IMG/VR virus record: IMGVR_UViG_3300030389_001291
Location: 1 to 59,520 of that record
Reading direction: 5' to 3' (one strand)
From: a virus
Taxonomy: Duplodnaviria > Caudoviricetes
DNA: 59,520 nt
In this document: piece by piece, positions 1 through 59,520 of the stretch
Layout: each line of letters opens with the position of its first letter
Numbering within the stretch: position 1 is the first letter of the stretch
Made by a program: the position numbers and the translations under genes
Notes under the pieces: model-generated
Seen by the model: the letters and a program-made list of their open reading frames with translations, nothing else
Told to the model about the DNA's origin: nothing
The model's database searches: none

Positions 1-98
1 AAATCAGAATTTTAACCTTAACTGTCCTTGGAGGGACAATTTATTATGCAAAATAATCATAATAAAAAAACGGGGTCTCCAGTTTCTACTGTAGTTTC
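1..98. repeat. Terminal overlap (identical to 59422-59519); circular or terminally redundant assembly
   Basis: 98-nt exact match between the contig start and end. The end copy reads into the same gene start. Confidence 0.95.
23..38 (+). promoter_or_regulatory. RBS hairpin with UUGGAG loop (early-gene type)
   Basis: TGTCC-TTGGAG-GGACA, followed by ATG at 46. Confidence 0.8.
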
Positions 99-828
99 TG
101 ATGAAACGAAACTTTGGTTAGAAAACTTAGAGACTAAATATGGTATTGGTGTTGGTAGACAACTTTTTTATGTCTTAGCAGACATTATTCAATCTGAAAA
201 AGATTTAGAAAAGTTGGTAGTCAAAGGATTACTTAAAGAGCATGAAAGCAAAGGGAAACTTTTGCAAGATATGGCTAATGAACTTGGATTAAATTCTAAT
301 TCTAAGCCAGTTATTAGTGCTAATGTTGTTGATGTTTTTACTAAAAAAACTAAACCAATAAACAAGACTATTAAGAAAGTCTTAAAGACTAATTCTGATA
401 TCAATACTAAAATGAAATCCGCTATGCAAGATTGCGTTAGTAAAAATCAATCGAATGAATTTGAGATTGATTGGACTAGCCTAGGCAAATATAGATATTC
501 TGATTTAGATATTTTAGGAATGTCATTGAAAGGATATTCTGTATTAAAAGAAGATAATCTTTTCTGTGGATTTAAAAGTGGTATGTTTGCTACTCTTCAC
601 AACCAAGCGTTGGCATTGTGGAGGGATGAGGAAAAGCAACCTACGATTAAAGAAATTGTTAGATTGCAACCACGATATACCAAGACTGGAGAACTTAGGA
701 ATTTGTGTATTCAGTCTATCGCCAAGAGATTATTTAAGGCTATTGTTCACTTTGGAACTGCGGAAGAGAAACAGTTGTTATTTGGAACTTCTGAAATCTA
801 TCCTAAGCCAAGGAAGAAAAAAGCCTAG
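46..828 (+). CDS. Hypothetical early protein (260 aa)
   Basis: ORF 28..828 with the start moved to ATG 46, downstream of the GGAGG SD. No family recognised. Confidence 0.8.
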   Translation: MQNNHNKKTGSPVSTVVSDETKLWLENLETKYGIGVGRQLFYVLADIIQSEKDLEKLVVKGLLKEHESKGKLLQDMANELGLNSNSKPVISANVVDVFTKKTKPINKTIKKVLKTNSDINTKMKSAMQDCVSKNQSNEFEIDWTSLGKYRYSDLDILGMSLKGYSVLKEDNLFCGFKSGMFATLHNQALALWRDEEKQPTIKEIVRLQPRYTKTGELRNLCIQSIAKRLFKAIVHFGTAEEKQLLFGTSEIYPKPRKKKA

Positions 829-977
829 AAAATAATAGACTGGTAAATATTTTATCATCTGATTCGGAGATGGTAATTTTTTGAGCTGATTTAAGAGGGG
901 GGTTTTTTGGGGTATCTTATGCCCTTACCCTCTTCTTAAATTTGCAATAGGCGAAGTCTCACGAAGTCAATTTTTGC

Positions 978-1038
978 AAAACTGTATAGAAAATGCGTAT
1001 TTTCTACTGATGATTGCCAAAAGGCATGAAACAGTTTT
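978..1038 (+). ncRNA. Hammerhead ribozyme, type III (HHR6), GUA cleavage after 986
   Basis: AAAACTG-TA/TAGAAAAT-gcgt-ATTTTCTA-CTGATGA-t-TGCC-aaaa-GGCA-t-GAAA-CAGTTTT. All three stems pair around the CUGAUGA/GAAA core. Confidence 0.9.
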
Positions 1039-1072: not shown

Positions 1073-1393
1073 ATGAAAAATGAAAAAGAATATGTTTATG
1101 ACATTGAGGAATATTCCCAAGATGTTAGGCATTATCAAATTACATCTAATGTAAAACTTACTTATGATGAAGTTAGGAACTCTTATCAAGAAAGTGATGC
1201 TTATAATAGAGTGAAAGTCTTTAGAGGTTTTAAAAATAGTTGTAATAATTTATCAAAACTTATTGACTGGTCTAATGATAGATTTACAAATCATCAAATA
1301 GACAAACAAATCAAAGTCTATGGTGTTTTTCAAGGCACAAAGTATGGCGATGATTGTCAAGTTGATATAACTGGAGAATTTGAAAATGACTAA
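1073..1393 (+). CDS. Hypothetical early protein (106 aa)
   Basis: ORF 974..1393. The likely start is ATG 1073 after the SD, because the upstream part of the ORF is the ribozyme. Confidence 0.75.
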   Translation: MKNEKEYVYDIEEYSQDVRHYQITSNVKLTYDEVRNSYQESDAYNRVKVFRGFKNSCNNLSKLIDWSNDRFTNHQIDKQIKVYGVFQGTKYGDDCQVDITGEFEND

Positions 1394-1652
1394 TAGGGAA
1401 TTGTTAGAATTTACTTTGAAAGTAAACATAGGAACTTGCAACGAAATCTATACGAAGATTGATAGGCAACTAGAAGAGAAATCAGATATTGATATGGCTC
1501 TAGTTAAATATTTTAATACTTTGGTTTCGATTAATCACAAAGTGCAAGATGTTTTATACAAAGAAAGGGCGGATATGAATTTACCTTTTCCAAAACATCT
1601 TGGATTTACAAGTGATAATCAAATAATAGAAGTTGAAGTGCAAGATATATAA
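1386..1652 (+). CDS. Hypothetical protein
   Basis: ORF overlapping the previous stop, with a GGAG SD upstream of ATG 1386. Confidence 0.7.
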   Translation: MTNRELLEFTLKVNIGTCNEIYTKIDRQLEEKSDIDMALVKYFNTLVSINHKVQDVLYKERADMNLPFPKHLGFTSDNQIIEVEVQDI

Positions 1653-1659
1653 ATAAATT

Positions 1660-1704
1660 AAGGCGGGATGCTACTGTAAAAGGTGGTGTCCCGCCTTTTT
1701 TTTT
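1660..1704 (+). terminator. Rho-independent terminator ending the early operon
   Basis: AAGGCGGGATGCTAC...GTGGTGTCCCGCCTT followed by a long T run. Confidence 0.85.
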
Positions 1705-1861
1705 GGTCTAAAAAAAGAGAATATGGTGGAGCTATCGCAGGTGCTAATAAAAAATATTTACTGGTATATTGTTTTTTCTGGTGTTGCGTGGTGTCAAATT
1801 TGAGGACATGAACACATGATTCAATATGCTATAAATTATATATATTTACTGGTTTTTTGGC

Positions 1862-7602: not shown

Positions 7603-7936
7603 ACTGAAACTAAAACCAATTAAAAAGAAGATGATACTGAAAATAGATTTAATCTATTGGCTAACAGAAGAATGGGATAGAAGAGATGTTATTAATTTAG
7701 GTATTGGCACAAAGAAAGGTATTGAATGGGAAATATTTTCGTGTATAGGAGATTGGCTACCTATTTATTACATACATAACTGGGAAGAAGTTAAACCTAT
7801 TTTAGATGAACAAACAGAACAAGGTATGCCTTTAGGAGATTATGCTGAAAAAGAGTATGAGTTAATGTGGCAACACGAAGATAACCCTAAATATGAATGG
7901 GACTATGAATTTTATTATGGAGAAAGCGATGAGTAA
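7595..7936 (+). CDS. Hypothetical protein
   Basis: 113-aa ORF with an AGGAGG SD. Confidence 0.7.
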   Translation: MAELKLKPIKKKMILKIDLIYWLTEEWDRRDVINLGIGTKKGIEWEIFSCIGDWLPIYYIHNWEEVKPILDEQTEQGMPLGDYAEKEYELMWQHEDNPKYEWDYEFYYGESDE

Positions 7937-8639
7937 AGAACTTACATATAAAGAAGTATGGGACAACCTATCTAAGATAGATTGTTCTGATAAAATAGAA
8001 AAGAAGATGAATTTATCTTATCTATCTTGGGCGTGGGCGTGGGGTGTTCTACAAGAACATTATCCACAGGCACAATACTTATTCTATCAAGGCGAGGGCG
8101 ATGTGCCTTATGTCAAATACCCCGATGGTACAGCAGAAGTTAGATGTAGAGTATCTATAGATAACTTAAATAGAGAAATGACACTAAGTGTTATGGACTA
8201 CAAGAACAATGCAGTACAAAACCCAAATTCAAGACAAGTTAATGATACTAAGATGCGATGCTTGGTTAAGTGTTTAGCCATGTATGGTCTTGGTCATTAT
8301 ATCTATGCAGGAGAAGATGTGCCTAGTGCAGATAAAGAGCCTGTTAAGAAAAAACCTATTACTGAGTTAAAGAATGTTGTAGAAGAAACATCTAAACCAG
8401 TAGAAAAACCAACAGAAGATGTTGAAGCAGATGCAGGTTATGGCACGGAAGCGTGGGCGGAGTTATATACTAAGAGTTTCTTAGACTTAGCAAAACTCAA
8501 CAAAACCAAAGAAGCTATGACATCTTACTATAAAACTAACACTAAAGACTTAGCAACATTAAGGGATAACTTTCCCAAGATGAAAGAGGATTTAGATGCA
8601 GAACTTAAACAAATCGTAGCAAACCTAAAGGAGGAATAA
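7929..8639 (+). CDS. Sak3/DUF1071-type single-strand annealing protein
   Basis: LSYLSWAWAW and RCLVKCLAMYGLGHYIYAGED motifs. Confidence 0.85.
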   Translation: MSKELTYKEVWDNLSKIDCSDKIEKKMNLSYLSWAWAWGVLQEHYPQAQYLFYQGEGDVPYVKYPDGTAEVRCRVSIDNLNREMTLSVMDYKNNAVQNPNSRQVNDTKMRCLVKCLAMYGLGHYIYAGEDVPSADKEPVKKKPITELKNVVEETSKPVEKPTEDVEADAGYGTEAWAELYTKSFLDLAKLNKTKEAMTSYYKTNTKDLATLRDNFPKMKEDLDAELKQIVANLKEE

Positions 8640-49715: not shown

Positions 49716-52179
49716 TCAATTTGCTATCTTCTACTATATTTTTAGCAATGTCAATACCTGTTTTATAATCATCTAATACTTTTTGTTCTGCTCTTTCTTC
49801 TCTATCTAGCAAATCACTAGCAATTTGCTGTCCTATTTTTAAACCGCTTGACTCTTGTTGAGCTTCAATTCTTTTTTCTTCAAGCTCTTTATTGTTCATT
49901 GCTTTAACAGTATCTAGTTGTATCTTAGCTTGACCTTCTTGTGTTTTTCTTTGAACTTCAGCTTCTTTAATAGCAACTTCTCTTTCTTTCATTTGTATTA
50001 ATGGGTCTTGCTGTTGCTGTTGTATTCTTTGTTGTTCTGCTTGTGCAGCATTAGTAGTTGCTACCCTTTGAGCAGCCTCAGCAATAAGTGTAGATAATCT
50101 TTTCTCTACATCTGCTGGTAGTGGTTCACCTACTGGAGGTAACTCTACACCCATTTCTCTTTCAACTTGGTCTCTAAACTGTAATGATAAATGTTGCATA
50201 ATGTAATCAGAACCAGCACTTTGTATAACTTGTGCATTAGGACTTTGTTGTACTTTTGCTTGTATATTTGGGTCTTGTTGTGCAGCCGCTAATGTATTGA
50301 TATGAGCTTCATGGTCTTGGAACTCATATGCTTTTACAGGCTTACCATTAATAATATTTTGTACTGCAGTAACTGGGTCAACTGGTGGTACTTCATCTTG
50401 TGGAGGCACAATAGTTTCTGCATCTTTAATTCCTAATACTTCAAGCATTTGTCTATGTAATTGACCTAAATCATATAGTTGTGGTGCTTGTTGTGCTAAT
50501 TGCATAGCTGCTTGATACTGCATAATTCTTTGTGCCATAGTTGCAGCATTTGGGTCTGATACAGGTAATACATCTACTCTAGCATCAAAATCTTGTAATT
50601 TAATTTGTTGTCCTTCTTCTACTTCATATGGATAAGCAGGAGTTGTAAAATCTGTTATTACACCAACTAATATTTCAAACTCTCTTTTCATAGAAGAATG
50701 TAATCTAGCTTGTACTGCTGACATTACTTTCATGTTTCTTTCTAGTAATGCTAGTGTAGTGCCTACGGGTGCTTGACTATTCATGTCTGCTGTTTTCATA
50801 TCTGCAATACTTGCAAACCTTTTACCTTCCTCTACTATATTACCTAATAAAGAAAATAATGTTCCTGAAGGCTCTTTATAAGGTAAGAAAGTAATATTAT
50901 CTCTTATAGCACCACCTGGCACATCTACATCTCTAAACTCTCCAGGCATAATGGGACTATCGTCTCCTTTTATACGCAATCCTCTAGCTTTTAAACCACC
51001 AGGTAAATTACTTAAAGTACCTGCATCTACTAATTGTCTAAGTATAGATGTAGCTGATTTTGCTAATCCACCAATCATATGTATTAATCCAAAGCCATAA
51101 AAACCTAGTCCTGGTAGATATTGATAGTGAACAAAGTGCATCCTTCTTAATTTAGCAGGGTCATCTTCATAATAGTTTCTTCTAATACTAAGAATAATTC
51201 CAGAAGGATGGTCTATAGTTACAACATAAGGTAATGCTATCCCTGTGTCTTGACCACTTGCATCTTTATCTTCAAAACCTTTTAAATCTAAATCAACCTG
51301 CATTTCTAAGATAGTATGTCTTGTATCATAGCTATAGCTTTCTGATTCACCAGTCATCTCATTATATTTTTTAGTAATATCAGAAGATGTTGGTGTTGCA
51401 TCTGGTAATTCTATATTTCTATAAAATCCATTGACTTGCATCTTTCTAATATCATTAGATGACTTTTTCATTACATGAGTAGCTCTTTCACAAGTTTCTA
51501 AATCACTTGCACCATAATTAACCACAACATCTTCAGCAGGTACAAATATACCGCTTGGTCTATTTAATGTTGGGTCAAAATAAACTTTTCTAAACGCTGA
51601 ACCTGCAAGTGGTAGAGAAAATAACATTTTTTCTGTTTCACTTCTGTATTCAGTCATTTCGTAAGTTAAAAGATAATTAAGATAATCTTGTACTCTTTGA
51701 CTTTGTTTTTCTTTAGCAGAATCAATACTACCAACTATTTTAGTTCTTACTGGACCTGAAGCAGGAAATATTTCAGATATAGCTTGTGATTGAAACTTTA
51801 CTACAGCTTCACTTAACATAGGATGAAATACACCACAAGCTCCATTCCAAGGAGTAGTTCTTTCTTCTATCTTTAAACCTAGTTGGTCTAAGCCTTTTAC
51901 ATAGGTTTCTTCCCATTCTGACCTAGAATCTTTATCTGCTTGAAATGCACTTATTAACTCATTACCTATAGAATTTAATTCATCTTCATCTATAAAATCT
52001 ACTAAGTTAGAGTTAAAATCAGCATTATTCATTTGTGATGAACTTGGGTCAAAGTCAATAATCATGCCACCATCATCAGTTTCAGTAGTTTCTATCTCTA
52101 CATCTAAACCTGATTCTGGTTCCATTTCTACTAGACCATCTATTGGCGTAGCAGGTTCGTATTGTTTTTCTATAGCCAA
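49708..52179 (-). CDS. Portal protein
   Basis: 823 aa, follows TerL, with a P22-like Gln-rich C-terminal barrel. Confidence 0.88.
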   Translation of the reverse strand: MAIEKQYEPATPIDGLVEMEPESGLDVEIETTETDDGGMIIDFDPSSSQMNNADFNSNLVDFIDEDELNSIGNELISAFQADKDSRSEWEETYVKGLDQLGLKIEERTTPWNGACGVFHPMLSEAVVKFQSQAISEIFPASGPVRTKIVGSIDSAKEKQSQRVQDYLNYLLTYEMTEYRSETEKMLFSLPLAGSAFRKVYFDPTLNRPSGIFVPAEDVVVNYGASDLETCERATHVMKKSSNDIRKMQVNGFYRNIELPDATPTSSDITKKYNEMTGESESYSYDTRHTILEMQVDLDLKGFEDKDASGQDTGIALPYVVTIDHPSGIILSIRRNYYEDDPAKLRRMHFVHYQYLPGLGFYGFGLIHMIGGLAKSATSILRQLVDAGTLSNLPGGLKARGLRIKGDDSPIMPGEFRDVDVPGGAIRDNITFLPYKEPSGTLFSLLGNIVEEGKRFASIADMKTADMNSQAPVGTTLALLERNMKVMSAVQARLHSSMKREFEILVGVITDFTTPAYPYEVEEGQQIKLQDFDARVDVLPVSDPNAATMAQRIMQYQAAMQLAQQAPQLYDLGQLHRQMLEVLGIKDAETIVPPQDEVPPVDPVTAVQNIINGKPVKAYEFQDHEAHINTLAAAQQDPNIQAKVQQSPNAQVIQSAGSDYIMQHLSLQFRDQVEREMGVELPPVGEPLPADVEKRLSTLIAEAAQRVATTNAAQAEQQRIQQQQQDPLIQMKEREVAIKEAEVQRKTQEGQAKIQLDTVKAMNNKELEEKRIEAQQESSGLKIGQQIASDLLDREERAEQKVLDDYKTGIDIAKNIVEDSKLNE

Positions 52180-54211: not shown

Positions 54212-54691
54212 CTATTGTTTGTTAAGTAATGCTTCTATTCGCTCTTCAATATCTCGCTCGACTTCATCACTTGTTCTCGCTTCTTTGGTCTCAACTACAT
54301 CACTAAATAACGATACGCTCTTACCCAGTAATTCCAATGCTCGAACTCTTGATGCATCGCTATCCGCTTCTTTGCTTTCTCTATATAACTGCTCGATAAC
54401 ATAGTTTCTTGTTCTGAGCGATGTAGCAACTGATGACTGCTCTTTTCTTTGGATAGCCTTTTGTATGCTTAGTGCTATCTTAGGGTTAGCGACTAAACGA
54501 CTTGCTTCGACTTCTACCCATTTTGGTATCTTCCCAGTCTTGGTTAATTCAACATCATAAACCTTTGCATATGCTTCTTTATAACTACCTAACTTTCCCT
54601 TGATAATTTCATCCACAAACTGGCGTTGCTTAATCGTTAAATCTTTATCTTGTTTTACTACTTTTAATTTTGGTTTCTCTTCTTTGCTCAT
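54212..54691 (-). CDS. terS: Terminase small subunit
   Basis: LTIKQRQFV..EAYAKVY..EASRL.ANPKI HTH and RVRALELLGK. Confidence 0.8.
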   Translation of the reverse strand: MSKEEKPKLKVVKQDKDLTIKQRQFVDEIIKGKLGSYKEAYAKVYDVELTKTGKIPKWVEVEASRLVANPKIALSIQKAIQRKEQSSVATSLRTRNYVIEQLYRESKEADSDASRVRALELLGKSVSLFSDVVETKEARTSDEVERDIEERIEALLNKQ

Positions 54692-54778
54692 ACTGAAATC
54701 TTATCTCATGTATGGAGAAAATATAATGCTCACAAAACGATAGCAAAAATAGTGAACTGGTAAATAATTAATATGGTG

Positions 54779-54807
54779 TTGAATATGATGTTTACATCGC
54801 TTATACT
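54779..54807 (+). promoter_or_regulatory. Sigma70 promoter of the early operon
   Basis: TTGAAT-17 nt-TATACT with AT-rich upstream sequence. Confidence 0.7.
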
Positions 54808-54813
54808 GTTCTC

Positions 54814-55126
54814 AACAAAGACCAAAACGATTATGTCTCTAAACTGTAGCCAACCACCCGCAAGGGTCTCGAAAGAGGTAAGGTTGAAACCTAAGTCCTA
54901 GGATTAAGAGGTTAAACTTAATCAGACTTATTGGAAAGAAAAGGTTAGTCCAGTCCAATAATGAATTCGCTTCAAGGTAGCTAGTGGGAAACAATAGGAT
55001 AGTTAAAGTCGTGATGACTTCAGCGAGACCCCCAAGACCAAAAGGAAATTATCTTTTTGCCATTGATACAAAAATTGATATGGACTTACTTAAAGATTTA
55101 TAACTTTTGGGACTGCTCCAACAGTC
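54814..55126 (+). ncRNA. Structured ~310-nt leader RNA released by HHR1
   Basis: GNRA-capped hairpins (ACCC-GCAA-GGGT, CTC-GAAA-GAG) in a junction, several 7-8 bp helices, and no SD-linked ORF. Confidence 0.6.
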
Positions 55127-55184
55127 TATGAATTGACATACTGAAGAGCATCCTATTTTGGGATGCAAGAAACTGACCTTGGAG
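55116..55184 (+). ncRNA. Hammerhead ribozyme, type III (HHR1), GUC cleavage after 55126; core has an AA insertion
   Basis: CAG-TC/TATG-aattga-CATA-CTGAAGA-GCATCC..GGATGC-aa-GAAA-CTG. Stem III can be extended by CTCCAA/TTGGAG. Confidence 0.7.
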
Positions 55185-55188
55185 GGTC
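55175..55188 (+). promoter_or_regulatory. RBS hairpin with UUGGAG loop
   Basis: GACC-TTGGAG-GGTC, with ATG at 55197. Confidence 0.8.
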
Positions 55189-55196
55189 TTAGAATT

Positions 55197-55484
55197 ATGG
55201 AAAAAAATAAAGAACAAATAATATTTTTTATTGACCATATAAATACTTTTAGCGATATAGAAAAAGAACTTCATCTAACTGGAGCAAAATATATCTCAAT
55301 GGAACATTCAAAAAGATATGAATGTTTAAAAGTGAAATTTGAAGTTGATGATTATCATCAAAGAAATAAATTAATTAAACTTGCCTTAGAACACGACATT
55401 GATACTAAGATAATTTTTGATGATAGATTTACTCTTAACCAAATTCACGAAAAAGTATTTGATAGATATATCAGAACTTATTAA
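55197..55484 (+). CDS. Hypothetical early protein (95 aa)
   Basis: ORF 55158..55484 with the start reassigned to the ATG after the SD. Confidence 0.75.
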   Translation: MEKNKEQIIFFIDHINTFSDIEKELHLTGAKYISMEHSKRYECLKVKFEVDDYHQRNKLIKLALEHDIDTKIIFDDRFTLNQIHEKVFDRYIRTY

Positions 55485-55544
55485 ACCGACTGATGAGCCA
55501 ATGAAATTTTGGCGAAACTAGATAAGAAATTATCTAGTCTTGGT
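55485..55544 (+). ncRNA. Hammerhead ribozyme, type I (HHR2), GUC cleavage after 55539
   Basis: ACCGA-CTGATGA-GCCAA..TTGGC-GAAA-CTAGATAA-gaaa-TTATCTAG-TC/TTGGT, with a fully canonical core. Confidence 0.93.
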
Positions 55545-55576
55545 GTTAGCAATTTGCTAACAAATATTAAACTTAA

Positions 55577-55592
55577 AATTCTTGGAGGAATT
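55577..55592 (+). promoter_or_regulatory. RBS hairpin with UUGGAG loop
   Basis: AATTC-TTGGAG-GAATT, with ATG at 55597. Confidence 0.75.
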
Positions 55593-55596
55593 AATT

Positions 55597-56667
55597 ATGT
55601 TTAAACCTAGTGAAGCAAAAAAATCATGCCTACATATTTTGAAAGGAAGTAATATTCCATTCTTAATTGGTGGTACTGGTGTTGGTAAATCCGCTATCGT
55701 TAAAGAGATTGCGGAAGAACTTGCGAATGGTAGAACTTTAACTGATAACATCAATCCAAAAAAAGATGAATTTGGTTTTATCTCTTTTAGATTGGGATTA
55801 GTTGAAAGTATTGATTTAGGCGGACTGCCACACATTGATGAAGAAACTGGTATTCAGAAAAAAGCAATGTTGGGTAATTTGCCAAGAGGTGGCGAGGGTC
55901 TATTTTTCTTGGATGAATTTGCACAAGCTCATTCATCAGTCCAAGCAACGATAGGTCAATTACTCGACCCAAAAGGAAAAAACGAAGAGCGAAAAATTGG
56001 CGAATATGTTTTTCCTAGTGGGTGGAAAATTGTCCTAGCGGGTAATAGACATACTGATAGAAGTGGAGCAAATAAAATTCTTAGGCATTGCCAAGATAGA
56101 ACTACTGCAATTCAGTTTACTCACGATGTAAACGACTGGTTAGACTGGGCTGATAGCAACGATGTTGACTTGAATGTCCAAGGTTTAATTAGATTTATGC
56201 CACAACTACTTTGGGACTTCGACCCAAAATCTAATGACCCACAACCAAGTCCAAGAAGTTGGGTAAGGTTAAGCGATACACTAAAAACTAACCCGCCTAA
56301 AGAGTTGAGACAAAAACTCTTCGAGGGCGATGTTGGTCAAGAGTGTGCCATTGAATTGATGAATTTTATTTCACTTCAAAATGATGTGCCAAACATATCA
56401 AAAATATGTAAAGGCGATGAAGTAGAATTGATTGATGAAGCGGGTCTTTGTTATGCGACTACGATTGCTCTAACTACAGCGATTGCACAAGCGGATGACA
56501 AAAACATATATGACTACTTTGAAAATGCTTTAAATTATGTGAAGCAATTTTCGACTGTAGAATTTTCTATATTCTTTGTTAGAAAAATTACTGGACTTAG
56601 AAACGAACTCAAAGAGTGCGATGTATATTCTAAATTCAAAGTTGATAACCAAGATTTAGAAATCTAA
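55597..56667 (+). CDS. MoxR-like AAA+ ATPase
   Basis: Walker A GGTGVGKS, Walker B LFFLDE, LAGNR and PSPRSW. Confidence 0.88.
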   Translation: MFKPSEAKKSCLHILKGSNIPFLIGGTGVGKSAIVKEIAEELANGRTLTDNINPKKDEFGFISFRLGLVESIDLGGLPHIDEETGIQKKAMLGNLPRGGEGLFFLDEFAQAHSSVQATIGQLLDPKGKNEERKIGEYVFPSGWKIVLAGNRHTDRSGANKILRHCQDRTTAIQFTHDVNDWLDWADSNDVDLNVQGLIRFMPQLLWDFDPKSNDPQPSPRSWVRLSDTLKTNPPKELRQKLFEGDVGQECAIELMNFISLQNDVPNISKICKGDEVELIDEAGLCYATTIALTTAIAQADDKNIYDYFENALNYVKQFSTVEFSIFFVRKITGLRNELKECDVYSKFKVDNQDLEI

Positions 56668-56724
56668 ATTTACATGGCGAGTTAAGGAATATTTATTATT
56701 TACTGGTAAATATTCCTTTCCCGC

Positions 56725-56785
56725 TAATTCTAATATCAAGATGTGTGTCTTGGCTGATGATTAGGAAACTATGAAATTAGAATTA
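56725..56785 (+). ncRNA. Hammerhead ribozyme, type III (HHR3), AUA cleavage after 56735
   Basis: TAATTCTAA-TA/TCAAGAT-gtgt-GTCTTGG-CTGATGA-t-TAG-gaaa-CTA-t-GAAA-TTAGAATTA. Confidence 0.88.
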
Positions 56786-56798
56786 TTAATCATAAACC

Positions 56799-56812
56799 GA
56801 CCTTGGAGGGTC
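56799..56812 (+). promoter_or_regulatory. RBS hairpin with UUGGAG loop
   Basis: GACC-TTGGAG-GGTC, with ATG at 56820. Confidence 0.8.
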
Positions 56813-56819
56813 AAGTATT

Positions 56820-57785
56820 ATGAAAAAAGATAATGTAAATACTCTATCTGAAAATGCTACTTTGGTGCGACTTACAACGAAGCATCCAAGCGGTATTAAA
56901 TCAGATAAGAATTTAAAAGAGGGTTTAGCAATAGACCAAAATGCACATGAAAATTCGCTTCATGTCGCTAAGTATATTTTTGGTAAAGAAACGAATAAAT
57001 ATTTTCGTAGAATTATCAATCAGTTTAGGAATAATTATTTTTATCCTTTAACTGTTCCTTGGGATGATAATACTAGCGACTACGAGGGAAAAGTTTTAAG
57101 CGGGTGGAGATTATGTCCTAACCAAGAACTGGATAACCTTGTTGATAAAGTGAATGAAGCTAAGGCGGATTTTGATAAAGAAGTTAAACAATTTCTTGAT
57201 AGCTACGATAATTTAATCGAGCAAAATAAATACGCTCTTGGTAATGCATTTAAGTTGTCTGATTATCCTACTAAAGAAGAGATTGAGCATAAGTTTAAAT
57301 TTGATTTTGAACTTGGCACAGTCCCACAATTTAGTAGCAACGATATTCGTATTGGTGTATCTGAAAAACTTCGCAAGAAGATTGAGAATGATGCATTAAA
57401 AAGGGCAACCAAAAATGTAGAAGCGATAACTAGAACAACAGTCGAAACTCTTTTGGAAAGTGTTGAGCATTTAGCTGACAAGCTAAAATCATACGACCCA
57501 AAAACTAAAGGTGGAGGTTTCTTTAAGAAATCATCATTCGATAAGTTGAGACAATTTTTAGATACGCTCCCAAGTATCAATTCTGACATTCTAGGGAATG
57601 ACAAAAAGATAACGGAAGCACATCAAAATTTAGTTAGCGTTTTTGCAAAAATTAATGATGTCGATGCTCTTCGCGAAGATGATGATTACACAGCCAACAA
57701 AAGAAAACAGTTGGCTGATGATTTAACTTCGAGTGTCGATGATTTAAAAGGCGGATTTTTAGATAATATGTATTCTAAAAAGTAG
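56820..57785 (+). CDS. DUF3150-like helical protein of the AAA/vWA module
   Basis: 321 aa with TVPW..GWRLCP and FKLSDYP, located between the ATPase and vWA genes. Family assignment is tentative. Confidence 0.65.
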   Translation: MKKDNVNTLSENATLVRLTTKHPSGIKSDKNLKEGLAIDQNAHENSLHVAKYIFGKETNKYFRRIINQFRNNYFYPLTVPWDDNTSDYEGKVLSGWRLCPNQELDNLVDKVNEAKADFDKEVKQFLDSYDNLIEQNKYALGNAFKLSDYPTKEEIEHKFKFDFELGTVPQFSSNDIRIGVSEKLRKKIENDALKRATKNVEAITRTTVETLLESVEHLADKLKSYDPKTKGGGFFKKSSFDKLRQFLDTLPSINSDILGNDKKITEAHQNLVSVFAKINDVDALREDDDYTANKRKQLADDLTSSVDDLKGGFLDNMYSKK

Positions 57786-57837
57786 TCTGATGAGTTGCGG
57801 GGAAAAAACTATTTACCAGTAAATATTTTTTCTTCGC

Positions 57838-57892
57838 TTCTGTCTTAGGATGTAGTCCTAACTGATGATGACTGAAAACAGTCGAAACAGAA
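57838..57892 (+). ncRNA. Hammerhead ribozyme, type III (HHR4), GUC cleavage after 57844
   Basis: TTCTG-TC/TTAGGA-tgtag-TCCTAA-CTGATGA-t-GACTG-aaaa-CAGTC-GAAA-CAGAA. Confidence 0.9.
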
Positions 57893-57904
57893 ACTCATAA
57901 ATAA

Positions 57905-57920
57905 AATTCTTGGAGGGATT
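57905..57920 (+). promoter_or_regulatory. RBS hairpin with UUGGAG loop
   Basis: AATTC-TTGGAG-GGATT, with ATG at 57925. Confidence 0.75.
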
Positions 57921-57924
57921 AATT

Positions 57925-59310
57925 ATGATGAATAGTGAAGAGCGAATAATAAAAGCTAGAGCAAAACTTATGAAAGGTAATGTTGGAATGGCAACCATGT
58001 TATTAAAACTTACTTTGATTGAGAACAATGAGCGATGCCAAACAATGGCTACTGACGGCGTTAATATTTATTGGAATGATGAATTTGTTAAATCAATAAC
58101 AGATGAGGAAATCCAAGCGGTATTGGTACACGAAGCTAGTCATGTTATTTGGGAACATCCGCTTAGAAAAGGAAATCGAAATCACGAACTTTGGAACATA
58201 GCTACTGACTATGTAATTAACTCTTGGATAGCATACGATTTACATATGCAATTACCCGAGGAGGGATTACTTGATAGGAAGTATCACGGACAAAGTGCGG
58301 AGCAAGTTTATAGAACTTTATCGAATGATGAAGATGCTTTAAACGATGCTCTTGAAGATTTAAAATCAAAATCTGATAATGGCGATTCTGATTCTGATTC
58401 TGATTCTGATTCTCAAAATGGTACTGGCGATTCTGATTCTGATTCAGATTCAGATTCAGATTCAAATTCTGATTCTGATTCTAGTTCTGACTCAAACGAT
58501 ACTGCTAATGGAAATGGTAAAGGCAAGTCTCTTGAAGAGAAACTTGCTGATGTTCAATTACCAAGTGGCGAAGTATGGATGCCAACGAATGATGAGGGCA
58601 AAGAATTATCTCCTAGTGAAATGGCTGACTTACAAGAACAGTTGCAAAGAACTATTGCCATGGCTGACAAATTGGAAGGTATGAGCGATGAGGGATGCGG
58701 TGGTTTTGGCGATGCCATGAAACAACTTAATGAAAGTTATGTTGACTGGGTAGATGTGATGCGAGACTTATTGCAAAGTGCTATTGCTACCAACCCCACA
58801 TGGACAAGATTGAATAAAAGACATTCTTGGAGGGGGATTAACTTGCCAAGCAAAGACAAAGAGCCACAAGGTGGCGAACTTGCGATTGCTATAGATACAA
58901 GCGGAAGCGTATGCCAAGAGGAACTCAATGTTTTTGCTACTGAAATCAATGCCATTGCAGAAGATTGCGGTATCAATAAAATTAGAGTTTGCTATTGCGA
59001 TACTACTGTCCGCAAAAATTCTAAAGGCGAATGGTGGGATGAGTACGACTTAGATTGTGAAGAGTTGGAACTCGTTGCCCGTGGTGGCGGTGGAACTAAT
59101 TTTGACCCGCCTTTTAACTTATTCAATGACTATACTGATAATACGGATGAAGTGATAGCGTTTATCTACTTTACGGATGCTTACGGATATTGTTCTGAAG
59201 AAGTTGAGCCTAATGTCCCAGTAATATGGGCGTTAAGTGGCGGAGAAAATTACTATAGCGATGAACTCCCTTTTGGCGAAAAAGTTGCTATCGATTTCTC
59301 TAGGTTTTAA
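57925..59310 (+). CDS. Metallopeptidase-vWA protein (DUF2201-like)
   Basis: TMATDG, HEASH (HExxH), WNIATDYVIN, an acidic linker, MIDAS DTSGS, GGGTNF and FTD. Confidence 0.88.
   Translation: MMNSEERIIKARAKLMKGNVGMATMLLKLTLIENNERCQTMATDGVNIYWNDEFVKSITDEEIQAVLVHEASHVIWEHPLRKGNRNHELWNIATDYVINSWIAYDLHMQLPEEGLLDRKYHGQSAEQVYRTLSNDEDALNDALEDLKSKSDNGDSDSDSDSDSQNGTGDSDSDSDSDSDSNSDSDSSSDSNDTANGNGKGKSLEEKLADVQLPSGEVWMPTNDEGKELSPSEMADLQEQLQRTIAMADKLEGMSDEGCGGFGDAMKQLNESYVDWVDVMRDLLQSAIATNPTWTRLNKRHSWRGINLPSKDKEPQGGELAIAIDTSGSVCQEELNVFATEINAIAEDCGINKIRVCYCDTTVRKNSKGEWWDEYDLDCEELELVARGGGGTNFDPPFNLFNDYTDNTDEVIAFIYFTDAYGYCSEEVEPNVPVIWALSGGENYYSDELPFGEKVAIDFSRF
58384..58492 (+). repeat. Coding GATTCT/GATTCA hexamer repeat (Asp-Ser linker)
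   Basis: Tandem DS codons within the vWA gene. Confidence 0.85.
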
Positions 59311-59375
59311 TCGCAAATTGGTGTGGGGGAAAAATTATTTACCAGTAAATATTTTTTCTCCCCTCCGTATCGAAT

Positions 59376-59430
59376 TTCTGATATCAAGATGTGTGTCTTG
59401 GCTGATGATTGCAAAAGCATGAAATCAGAA
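59376..59430 (+). ncRNA. Hammerhead ribozyme, type III (HHR5), AUA cleavage after 59383
   Basis: TTCTGA-TA/TCAAGAT-gtgt-GTCTTGG-CTGATGA-t-TGC-aaaa-GCA-t-GAAA-TCAGAA. Stem I is identical to HHR3, while stems II and III co-vary. Confidence 0.88.
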
Positions 59431-59519
59431 TTTTAACCTTAACTGTCCTTGGAGGGACAATTTATTATGCAAAATAATCATAATAAAAAAACGGGGTCTC
59501 CAGTTTCTACTGTAGTTTC
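59422..59519. repeat. Terminal overlap (copy of 1-98)
   Basis: Exact match to the contig start. Confidence 0.95.
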
Positions 59520-59520
59520 A

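Follow-up and report, generated by a model that had tools for sequence, protein, structure and literature searches.

The early RNA of bacteriophage T7 is cleaved by host RNase III at double-stranded sites, which leaves 5'-phosphate and 3'-OH ends. The locus described here resembles that system in that a transcript, putatively early, would be cut between cistrons to give mostly monocistronic mRNAs whose 3' ends retain a hairpin, but differs in that, under our proposal, the RNA cuts itself and yields 5'-OH and 2',3'-cyclic phosphate ends.

Self-cleaving RNAs in comparable positions are known from phages. Prophage genes, singly or in short blocks, often have multiple hammerhead ribozymes on their flanks (Perreault et al. 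2011, PMC3088659), an observation repeated in a 2017 review (PMC6155905). The 2011 report describes arrays within prophage polycistrons of Clostridium scindens, Azorhizobium caulinodans and Agrobacterium tumefaciens, and in vitro cleavage was demonstrated for three-ribozyme arrays (PMC3088659). According to the same source, the HHphage ribozyme of haloviruses HF1/HF2 precedes the opening gene of a polycistronic early phage transcript, and a mapped 5' end lies near the cleavage site; it carries insertions near C3 and stem I and requires high Mg2+ (PMC3088659). RiboJ, a synthetic element engineered from a plant satellite ribozyme and placed after a promoter, combines a hammerhead with a 23-nt hairpin before the ribosome binding site (PMC7536230).

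Here, we report an array of hammerheads in a 59,520-nt stretch of tailed-phage DNA (hereafter, the window). Like the prophage arrays, that of the window places several hammerheads of more than one type, all on the sense strand, between phage-derived genes, and natural U10.1-U11.1 and insertion variants occur in the prophage set as well (PMC3088659). In contrast to the arrays described in the text of that work, the window holds five canonical elements and one variant consecutively, one per gene, over ~6.4 kb. At least 45 related uncultivated phage contigs share this array, which accompanies a terS-divergent AAA/DUF3150/VWA operon and is combined with a 3' hairpin and a hairpin that presents the Shine-Dalgarno sequence. 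A preceding sequence-only reading of the window took such an ordered array to be undescribed; this claim to novelty fails because Perreault et al. already report gene-flanking prophage hammerheads, clustered phage examples having been in print since 2011 (PMC3088659; PMC6155905), and larger arrays may already be included in Figure 3 or the supplementary alignments of that work. The window array is a large, well-conserved case of an arrangement published in 2011 with the same interpretation (PMC3088659).

Results and discussion

A ribozyme-punctuated block of seven genes

The + strand block from ~54780 to 1700, which crosses the contig junction, appears to be a single tailed-phage operon, assuming that one transcript spans it. 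It would comprise a small ORF, a MoxR-like AAA+ ATPase, a DUF3150 protein, a DUF2201/VWA protein and three small ORFs, divergent from terS:

54779..54807, +, promoter-like site TTGAAT-17-TATACT (consensus scan, 9 of 12 matches; putative function)
55197..55484, +, gene 1, 95 aa, without family (ORF list and family searches)
55597..56667, +, gene 2, MoxR-like AAA+ ATPase (phrog_1297, E 1.2e-61; Pfam AAA_5)
56820..57785, +, gene 3, DUF3150 protein (Pfam PF11348, E 7.1e-7)
57925..59310, +, gene 4, DUF2201_N metallopeptidase-like and VWA-like domains (Pfam PF13203, E 3.5e-31, and PF09967, E 1.7e-17; phrog_1314)
46..828, +, gene 5, 260 aa, without family (start repeated at 59467 in the terminal overlap)
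1073..1652, +, genes 6 (1073-1393) and 7 (1386-1652), overlapping by 8 nt, ribozyme-free between
1660..1706, +, intrinsic terminator (16-bp stem with 8 G-C pairs, then a T run)

This gene layout, the promoter-like site, the terminator (1660-1697) and the fragment sizes given below agree with the sequence-only reading. Because the window ends overlap (59422-59519 equals 1-98), the 1024-nt piece that it had drawn across the circular junction is correct. Its description of the operon as early is a supposition. Aligned relatives have a -10-like TATAMTGT at the position matching the promoter-like site, and promoter-like sites in the operon region are not enriched over shuffles. The one strong terminator lies 3' of gene 7, with no comparable one inside the block.

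Five canonical hammerheads precede genes 2-6

We searched the whole window with a descriptor that specifies CUGANGA, a stem II hairpin, GAA, the A15.1-U16.1 pair, H17, and stems I and III, and tolerates at most one extra nucleotide on either side of stem II. In its strict form, the descriptor matched five sites on the + strand and none on the - strand, among 20 and 24 CTGANGA sites, respectively; one match is type I and four are type III.

55485..55544, +, hammerhead 2, type I, consensus core, cut after C55539 (descriptor; stems of 5/5/9 bp without insertions)
56725..56785, +, hammerhead 3, type III, U10.1-U11.1, cut after A56735 (descriptor; covariance model, 71.9 bits)
57838..57892, +, hammerhead 4, type III, extra U after A9, G10.1-C11.1 pair, cut after C57844 (descriptor; covariance model)
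59376..59430, +, hammerhead 5, type III, U10.1-U11.1, cut after A59383 (descriptor; covariance model, 75.2 bits)
978..1038, +, hammerhead 6, type III, U10.1-U11.1, 8-bp stem I, cut after A986 (descriptor; covariance model, 59.9 bits)

Five of the six hammerheads proposed from sequence were thus recovered by the descriptor with the same coordinates and cut sites, one before each of genes 2-6; the first, at 55116-55184 before gene 1, is non-consensus and is treated separately as element 1. The relaxed descriptor gave six matches, whereas 60 dinucleotide shuffles averaged 0.15 and never exceeded 2; the sixth match is a weak one on the - strand inside the portal ORF (51488-51608; stem I of 3 bp, stem II of 2 bp). 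A covariance model run over the whole window with filters off picked out the four type III elements alone (47.6-75.2 bits), which match by construction because the model was built partly from them; the informative outcome is that no further window sequence matches, the next best score being 13.9 bits.

At gathering score, Rfam returned no match in the window, which we attribute to the U10.1-U11.1 mismatch in three elements and the extra U after A9 in one. With E-value thresholds, two full-length sub-threshold alignments emerged, to Hammerhead_3 (RF00008; 57837-57893, 32.4 bits, E 3.8e-4, gathering score 48.5) and RAGATH-1-hammerhead (RF03152; 55452-55544, 27.5 bits, E 0.16, gathering score 56.3), and the other four elements were absent from the output even then. 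U10.1-U11.1 is a documented natural variant with more activity than other mismatches (PMC3088659).

The minimum-energy fold is the hammerhead fold in three of the five canonical elements, namely 2 (z -4.61), 4 and 6 (z -3.15), and the centroid is so in a fourth, hammerhead 5. Three points count against the processing reading: hammerheads 3 and 5 have minimum-energy folds other than the hammerhead fold, a single element reaches Rfam E < 0.01, and in three ribozymes the closing pair is the weaker U-U and stem II is short (3-4 bp) and rich in A/U.

Conservation and covariation among relatives

As relatives, we took 45 viral contigs encoding a DUF3150 protein 70-99% identical to that of the window. 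Over their 380,575 nt, the descriptor gave 171 sense-strand matches against 2 antisense, with 3-7 per locus. A hammerhead lies directly before DUF3150 in 45/45 loci, and the other slots are mostly occupied. Across the window and the 45 loci, the covariance model yielded 130 matches at E <= 0.001, all on the + strand.

In the resulting alignment of 69 distinct rows, which is fitted to the model and hence favours structure, 91.3% of pairing cells are paired, compared with 64.0% in shuffles, and 15 of the 17 pairs are altered on both sides. The covariation score of 0.733 (shuffles, 0.214) was reached by 0/500 shuffles, and slid controls did not exceed 0.179; these controls and an independent MAFFT alignment (A2) agree with the pattern in the fitted alignment. 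Stem I is paired in 100% of cases with 6/6 pairs covarying, and A15.1-U16.1 is invariant (69/69). Conservation of loop I (AUGUGUAU) and of the A-rich loop II, alongside variable stems, is as expected for a tertiary contact. Selection on structure, as originally suggested, is therefore upheld: judged by these sequence patterns, the hammerheads before genes 2-6 are genuine sense-strand ribozymes.

One ribozyme per gene is not an obligatory rule. The DUF3150 and vWA genes abut without a hammerhead in two loci (L037 and L038). Among distant phages with the same terS-divergent operon (AAA 26-56% identical, GC 0.35-0.46), 2-5 hammerheads each were found, and some slots are empty; 25 of 79 retrieved loci were covered. 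The missing ribozymes indicate that these genes can be expressed without one. In another relative (L001), a type I rather than a type III hammerhead precedes DUF3150; that either type can fill one slot points to selection on cleavage at the slot and not on a particular sequence.

The leader and element 1

54816..55104, +, non-coding leader of ~300 nt, its 5' domain structured and conserved (no + strand ORF of 40 aa or more)
55111..55126, +, hairpin GACUG-CUCCAA-CAGUC (loop complementary to the Shine-Dalgarno UUGGAG)
55122..55175, +, element 1, three-way junction resembling a hammerhead, core non-consensus, putative cut after C55126 (alignment of relatives)
55175..55188, +, hairpin with the gene 1 Shine-Dalgarno UUGGAGG in its loop (sequence)

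The leader, alignable in 26 sources (22 distinct), retains 8 of the 12 predicted pairs of its 5' domain through two-sided changes; it has no Rfam match, and its single-sequence fold is not unusual (z -0.22). Element 1 is conserved and hammerhead-like but departs from the consensus. It occurs once in the window and once in 42/45 loci, never on the - strand. CUGAAGA, GAAA, GUC and stems I and II are present: both of these stems covary and are paired in 100% of relatives, and CUGA(A)NGA and GAAA are invariant, with N7 variable. What does not fit a hammerhead at 55116-55184 are two extra A residues between stem II and G12, invariant across relatives, and a stem III of 3-4 bp (three invariant pairs, the fourth retained in 19/30); Rfam hammerhead models gave no match, even in a 106-nt search.

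The 3' arm of the 55111-55126 hairpin doubles as the putative cleavage-site strand in element 1, and the element is predicted to compete with this upstream anti-Shine-Dalgarno hairpin. In 30 distinct aligned relatives, the hairpin loop is nearly invariant and the closing pair covaries (AU 11, GC 10, UA 3, unpaired 6, the unpaired rows being mostly shifted by the aligner). Under rough constraints, the two conformers are near iso-energetic, with a mean difference of 0.08 kcal/mol and the hammerhead form stabler in 13/30 relatives. The arms of the Shine-Dalgarno hairpin also covary among relatives (3/5 pairs altered on both sides). Element 1 probably descends from a canonical type III hammerhead and has a derived core; whether or not it cleaves itself is about equally likely. 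Like HHphage, it has a non-consensus core a few bases 5' of the first gene (PMC3088659); it differs in the AA before G12, with or without A6a, and in the anti-Shine-Dalgarno hairpin.

Junction hairpins and the division of the transcript

55545..55561, +, hairpin GUUAGCA-AUU-UGCUAAC (intergenic fold; six bases into the gene 2 mRNA past the predicted cut)
56684..56718, +, long hairpin with palindrome TATTTACTGGTAAATA (fold; 17 nt before the hammerhead 3 cut)
57797..57837, +, long hairpin with palindrome TATTTACCAGTAAATA (fold; ends 7 nt before the hammerhead 4 cut)
59325..59363, +, long hairpin with palindrome TATTTACCAGTAAATA (fold; ends 20 nt before the hammerhead 5 cut)
893..934, +, G+C-rich hairpin 3' of gene 5 (fold)

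The arrangement as a whole is best explained, with a fairly high degree of confidence, by one operon whose transcript cuts itself before genes 2-6 and thereby uncouples the cistrons; division into mostly single-gene mRNAs is probably the role of the array. Each ribozyme would fold during transcription and cleave 3' of H17, leaving a 2',3'-cyclic phosphate and a 5'-OH, with predicted pieces of about 313, 413, 1196, 1109, 1539, 1024 and 715 nt. The junction module would run from a 3' hairpin through the ribozyme to a Shine-Dalgarno hairpin: the upstream mRNA would terminate a few bases past a long stable hairpin, and, at the four type III elements, nearly the whole ribozyme would stay on the downstream mRNA as a structured, cap-like 5' end, followed by a short hairpin with the Shine-Dalgarno exposed in its loop. 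In support of this reading, 51/55 copies of TTTACNNGTAAA in relatives lie at most 80 nt upstream of a hammerhead. The motifs themselves, their strand bias and covariation, and the conservation of slots and loops are observed; we infer a single transcript over the block, cleavage in vivo, and effects on stability and translation; the 5'-OH ends might stabilize the mRNAs, depending on host RNases. By analogy with the RNase III sites of T7 early RNA and with synthetic RiboJ, such a module could uncouple the stability and translation of adjacent cistrons. RiboJ and this module share a type III-style hammerhead followed by a hairpin just 5' of the ribosome binding site, with upstream context removed from the 5' UTR, whereas the module here is natural, repeated within an operon, and holds the Shine-Dalgarno in the hairpin loop.

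The junction hairpins bear on another explanation, in which every gene is served by a separate promoter in or near the palindromic hairpin, and the hammerhead, acting as a natural RiboJ-type insulator, only removes a short 5' leader to let the Shine-Dalgarno hairpin fold undisturbed, no polycistronic RNA being divided. The 16-bp palindrome is conserved in sequence (9 matches versus 1.3 expected), with further copies beside the operon promoter and at 1755, 2091, 10924, 10976 and 39244, including other intergenic regions, and RiboJ offers a precedent for a hammerhead and hairpin before a ribosome binding site (PMC7536230). The palindrome could be a DNA-level regulation mark or mark internal starts. 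However, its central dinucleotide is flipped among same-facing copies (TG at 56697, CA at 57810 and 59336), a pattern more in keeping with a symmetric site or a simple hairpin than with a directional promoter; a sigma-70-like scan of the block gave 16 promoter matches against 20.4 expected; no phage RNA polymerase gene was found, the 2658-aa ORF being an LPD38 polyvalent protein; and in two relatives (L025 and L027) the palindrome caps stem III in a type I hammerhead and is therefore transcribed within the ribozyme. We consider separate promoters, and trimming without division, unlikely.

Division of a common transcript also has to be weighed against regulated or reversible ribozymes, that is, RtcB-type religation into circular or spliced gene-length RNAs, or cleavage tuned by ions, proteins or ribosome binding. 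The conserved non-consensus features (U-U closing pairs, the extra U, and the AA and variable A6a of element 1) and the closely balanced conformers of element 1 are compatible with this, and Perreault et al. raise both ligation or circularization and slower, possibly regulated variants; yet the spliced or circular products sought in that study were not detected (PMC3088659), nothing in the sequence requires ligation, and the cores of hammerheads 2 and 4 are consensus or near-consensus. Such behavior thus seems improbable. Finally, the motifs might be selfish or decaying passengers of gene cassettes without a present role in expression. Gene content among relatives does vary in ribozyme-bounded units, and the ribozyme class tracks its downstream gene, the class with an 8-bp stem I always preceding genes 6 and 7. 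Nevertheless, we regard this as highly implausible, given the invariant core nucleotides and covarying stems of the 69 distinct copies, the strand bias of 171 to 2, the refilling of slots by a different hammerhead type, and the conserved loops.

The phage contig and its divergent operon

The contig (59,520 nt, ~33% G+C) belongs to a tailed phage, an identity that rests on the genes for the small and large terminase subunits (TerS and TerL), portal, tail spike and primase/helicase. Most genes of the window lie on the - strand, including these, those for the virion proteins and a 2658-aa open reading frame (ORF) for an LPD38 polyvalent protein. The termini repeat exactly over 98 nt, positions 59422-59519 being identical to 1-98 and base 59520 differing from base 99; the window thus closes as a circle or is terminally redundant, and the repeat is probably an assembly overlap of such a genome. 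No tRNA genes were found in the window. A tblastn search of isolated phages with the AAA ATPase described below gave 788 records, none of which reached 60% identity, the best among the matches listed being at ~27-28%, and yielded no close cultured relative or host.

A block of genes on the + strand, divergent from terS, runs from ~54780 across the junction to ~1700.

Features of the + strand block
54779-54807, ahead of the block: sigma-70-like site, TTGAAT-17-TATACT
Gene 1, + strand: 95 aa, no family
Gene 2, + strand: MoxR-like AAA+ ATPase (phrog_1297, E 1.2e-61)
Gene 3, + strand: DUF3150
Gene 4, + strand: DUF2201_N and VWA-like domain
Gene 5, + strand: 260 aa
Genes 6 and 7, + strand: mutually overlapping
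1660-1706, after the block: strong terminator, 16-bp stem and T run

Within gene 4, a run of GATTCT/GATTCA repeats (58370-58500) encodes a Ser/Asp-rich linker that joins the DUF2201_N and VWA-like domains; this stretch is unalignable in many relatives, so that the protein matches as two pieces. The second + strand block of the window includes, at 7893-8639, the gene of a single-strand annealing protein of Sak type (PF06378, E 1.7e-44).

Hammerhead ribozymes before genes 2 to 6

Both strands of the whole window were scanned with a descriptor that covers type I and type III hammerheads and allows at most one extra base per side of stem II. Five matches, all on the + strand, were obtained with the strict form of the descriptor, and we number them by the operon gene directly downstream.

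Strict descriptor matches
55485-55544, + strand: hammerhead 2, type I
56725-56785, + strand: hammerhead 3, type III
57838-57892, + strand: hammerhead 4, type III
59376-59430, + strand: hammerhead 5, type III
978-1038, + strand: hammerhead 6, type III

Their coordinates and cut sites are identical to those proposed for genes 2-6 in a sequence-only reading of this DNA, which had claimed six hammerheads, one before each of the first six genes. Elements 2-6 stand as claimed; element 1 (55122-55175) has a non-consensus core and no hammerhead match in an Rfam search of 55095-55200, and is treated separately. A looser descriptor gave six matches, the extra one being the weak portal match described below, where 60 dinucleotide-preserving shuffles gave 0.15 on average and never more than 2.

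All five elements satisfy the core C3 U4 G5 A6 N7 G8 A9 ... G12 A13 A14, with the A15.1-U16.1 pair and an H17 that is not G. The Watson-Crick 10.1-11.1 pair, usually G-C, is present in element 2 and absent from elements 3, 5 and 6, in which a U-U closes stem II; in element 4, A9 is followed by an additional U, and stem II measures only 3-5 bp throughout elements 2-6. Among 69 distinct relatives, the 10.1-11.1 position is G-C in 14 and falls in the category 'other' in 53. Perreault et al. (PMC3088659) describe U10.1-U11.1 as a natural variant of active hammerheads, with activity above that of any other mismatch there, so that in elements 3, 5 and 6 it is a tolerated departure and not a reason for exclusion. 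These same features, namely the U-U, the extra U in element 4 and the short stems II, account for the scores in Rfam, the check proposed in the sequence-only reading: across the whole window nothing reached a gathering score, and two matches emerged by E-value, Hammerhead_3 at 57837-57893 (32.4 bits against a gathering score of 48.5, E 3.8e-4) and RAGATH-1-hammerhead at 55452-55544 (27.5 bits against 56.3, E 0.16). E-value scans of 54600-59520, 1-2500 and 55095-55200 gave no hammerhead match beyond these two.

Several other candidates were set aside. A weak descriptor match on the - strand inside the portal ORF (51488-51608), with homologous 121-nt matches in the related contigs L012 and L016, was judged to be due to chance, and a type II scan returned the hammerhead 5 core alone, in a spurious second parse. 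The sequence CTGATGAG at 57788-57795, directly after the gene 3 stop codon and upstream of the long hairpin, is followed by neither stem II nor GAAA and is therefore not a foldable hammerhead.

Conservation and covariation in related phages

A search with the DUF3150 protein retrieved 45 related viral contigs (70-99% identity). In these loci (380,575 nt), the descriptor identified 171 sense-strand and 2 antisense-strand hammerheads, 3-7 per locus, so that the same array, which the sequence-only reading had suggested seeking in related phages, is indeed present there. The slot directly before DUF3150 is occupied by a hammerhead in 45 of 45 loci, and the AAA, vWA, gene 5 and gene 6/7 units are usually preceded by one; the ribozymes bound the units by which gene content varies among the relatives. 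The type in a given slot can differ: L001, the contig whose DUF3150 protein is 99% identical to that of the window, has a type I hammerhead ahead of DUF3150, where the window has type III. Two weak-looking entries of the type I list, L006:9900-9984 and L007:4249-4343, were left out of the evidence.

A covariance model was built from 50 type III copies (alignment A2), the four of the window and 46 of the 72 distinct type III matches of the loci. Run over the whole window with filters off, it recovered the four known type III elements alone, at 47.6-75.2 bits, the next match scoring 13.9; over the window and the 45 loci its matches at E <= 0.001 numbered 130, none of them on the - strand. In the alignment of these matches (69 distinct rows), fitted to the model and hence biased toward its structure, 91.3% of cells are paired (64.0% in shuffles), both-sided changes occur in 15 of 17 pairs, and the covariation score of 0.733, compared with 0.214, was reached by none of 500 shuffles; a control in which the 3' partners were slid by 1-3 columns scored at most 0.179. 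The same compensations are visible by eye in an independent MAFFT alignment. Stem I pairs in 100% of these rows and covaries in all six of its pairs, A15.1-U16.1 is without variation in 69 of 69, and no change occurs in the columns of CUGA, GA and GAAA. The stems vary around a conserved loop I (AUGUGUAU) and a conserved A-rich loop II, the pattern that a loop-loop tertiary contact would predict. Judged from sequence, the five elements are very probably genuine hammerhead ribozymes under selection.

The pattern scan and the covariance model together added 64 copies in 79 other viral loci, of which gene mapping covered 25. In several phages of higher G+C and with AAA identity of only 26-56%, the same terS-divergent AAA/DUF3150/VWA operon contains 2-5 hammerheads; some junctions in these phages lack one.

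Composite junction modules

The junctions share a fixed order: stop codon, long hairpin, ribozyme, ~20 nt, a short hairpin with a UUGGAGG loop, and ATG. For each of genes 1-6, the Shine-Dalgarno sequence UUGGAGG is displayed by the loop of a short hairpin; the arms of these hairpins are gene-specific and covary in relatives. A perfect palindrome of 16 bp, TATTTACNNGTAAATA, is part of three of the long hairpins.

Junction features in the window
55175-55188: Shine-Dalgarno hairpin, gene 1
55577-55592: Shine-Dalgarno hairpin, gene 2
56799-56812: Shine-Dalgarno hairpin, gene 3
57905-57920: Shine-Dalgarno hairpin, gene 4
59444-59459: Shine-Dalgarno hairpin, gene 5
1051-1066: Shine-Dalgarno hairpin, gene 6
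56697-56712, 57810-57825, 59336-59351: palindrome, inside long hairpins before hammerheads
1755, 2091, 10924, 10976, 39244: palindrome elsewhere
54763-54773: palindrome half-site beside the operon promoter

With up to 2 mismatches, the palindrome has 9 matches in the window against 1.3 expected. Relatives contain 55 copies of its core, 51 of them no more than 80 nt ahead of a hammerhead, and in some type I ribozymes stem III is tipped by the palindrome. The orientation of the central dinucleotide of the palindrome differs from copy to copy. A dimeric DNA-binding protein may use the palindrome as an operator, or the sequence may act in RNA as a hairpin signal. That the junction hairpins serve as promoters for an N4-type virion RNA polymerase is unsupported, since LPD38 and phrog_18222 are the sole matches of the 2658-aa ORF.

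Cleavage at a type III element would leave the downstream mRNA starting with a nearly whole folded ribozyme, and the upstream mRNA would end 7-20 nt past a long hairpin (52 nt at the gene 5/6 junction); the fixed architecture predicts the protected end of each mRNA. The RNase III sites of phage T7 follow the same logic of ends. Among synthetic parts, RiboJ is described as a hammerhead followed by a hairpin ahead of the ribosome-binding site (PMC7536230), an order of ribozyme and hairpin whose logic is common to these junctions.

Probable processing of the operon transcript and earlier accounts

The five ribozymes sit between one promoter-like site and one terminator, and a single transcript is predicted to span them. 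Processing of this transcript into gene-length mRNAs is the best explanation of the arrangement and a probable one, in which we infer that the block is transcribed, that its RNA is cut in vivo and that expression is affected. As in clustered phage hammerheads generally, at least two sense-strand hammerheads flank genes in one putative transcription unit of phage origin.

The central idea of the sequence-only reading, an operon transcript cut gene by gene by its own hammerheads, is sound; it is not new, because Perreault et al. (2011; PMC3088659) had already given an account of clustered phage hammerheads, in which three tandem arrangements within ~2 kb transcripts were reported to show the expected cleavage in vitro, one of them also in vivo. 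Later reviews restate the point that clustered hammerheads flank phage genes and, in the passages concerned, regard what bacterial and phage hammerheads do in biology as still unanswered (PMC6765202, PMC6155905); published lists of ribozyme-associated gene classes also exist (PMC6765202, PMC5737381). The present locus extends a published phenomenon and opens no new one. Its additions to the 2011 account are a long and regular array that is deeply conserved in a clade of uncultivated phages and tied to one particular operon, a junction module of composite build, and the variant element 1 with its anti-Shine-Dalgarno hairpin. Within the open-access papers covered by our searches, we found no prior description of these particulars, of the array or of its AAA/vWA link; an earlier listing elsewhere is possible, and these marine phage ribozymes, or larger arrays, may be among those in Figure 3, Dataset S1 and the RNAMotif descriptors of Perreault et al.

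The clade provides an unusually clean natural test case, with five to seven ribozymes in an operon, dozens of compensated natural variants, and slots in which type I and type III substitute for each other. Should a host become available, each gene of the operon could offer its own test of the processing hypothesis.

Element 1, a variant at the start of the operon

Element 1 contains GUC, a 4-bp stem I, CUGAAGA, a 6-bp stem II and GAAAC, with a stem III of just 3-4 pairs. Two extra A residues separate stem II (C11.1) from G12, so that the junction between them is interrupted. There is one copy in the window and one in each of 42 of the 45 loci, always first after the leader and never on the - strand. 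In an alignment (A4) of 30 of the 31 distinct sequences, from which L006 was left out for a large loop II insertion, every copy pairs throughout stems I and II, both of which covary; in stem III three pairs are invariant and a fourth is kept in 19 copies, and the core letters and the AA insertion are invariant, N7 being free to vary. As counted from the alignment, 10 of the 30 copies have an extra A after A6, a change reported with low activity in the tests of Perreault et al. (PMC3088659).

In the distant locus L073, the first slot is occupied by a canonical type III hammerhead that has no AA insertion and that has the AAUUAA loop I and the GCAUCC start of stem II in common with element 1, which points to an origin of the latter from canonical hammerheads. 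Element 1 looks like a derived hammerhead; whether it would cleave itself is, from its sequence, about evenly balanced. With its AA insertion, this variant at the head of the operon could be informative on the retuning of a ribozyme core.

The 5' strand of stem III has a second partner, an upstream arm with which it forms a hairpin, and this alternative pairing covaries as well. The loop of the upstream hairpin, CUCCAA, is the exact complement of the Shine-Dalgarno sequence UUGGAG, itself in the loop of the next hairpin; covariation is uninformative for the putative kissing of the two loops because both are nearly invariant. The minimum-energy fold of element 1 in the window has a hammerhead shape, with a long stem III that engulfs the Shine-Dalgarno site (-29.6 kcal/mol, z -3.31). 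In relatives the two conformers have nearly the same mean stability (difference 0.08 kcal/mol), with the hammerhead form favoured in 13 of 30; these energies are rough, the constraint for the upstream hairpin being misplaced in some rows. These observations could be joined in a speculative and, in our estimate, improbable reading: element 1 would be a hammerhead-derived conformational switch, in which the cleavage-site strand and the CUCCAA loop alternate between a self-contained hairpin and an extended stem III paired to the UUGGAG of the first gene. Self-cleavage would thereby be coupled to the translation start of the first cistron and would release a structured ~300-nt leader RNA with a role of its own, and the other parts of the array would be mobile modules (3' hairpin, ribozyme and Shine-Dalgarno hairpin) that allow cassettes to be swapped among phages without disturbing expression.

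In more distant phages, canonical type III ribozymes with a G+C-rich hairpin ahead occupy the first slot after terS, as in L073 (5030-5190, - strand), L050, L068, L075, L110 and L122; in L050 and L110 the hairpin is followed by a U-rich run and is terminator-like.

The leader and the upstream region

Between the promoter-like site and element 1 lies a non-coding leader of ~300 nt (54816-55104) with a conserved structured 5' domain, predicted to consist of an AGAC...GUCU hairpin followed by a three-way domain with GNRA-type loops. Pairing is kept through both-sided changes in 8 of the 12 predicted pairs (17 relatives), and it is this comparative evidence that argues for the structure; folded as a single sequence, the leader is not unusual (z -0.22), and it has no match in Rfam. 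Other relatives have a different sequence at the same place. Between terS and the operon promoter, TAATGCTCACA (54724-54734) is invariant in all aligned relatives, in surroundings that vary.
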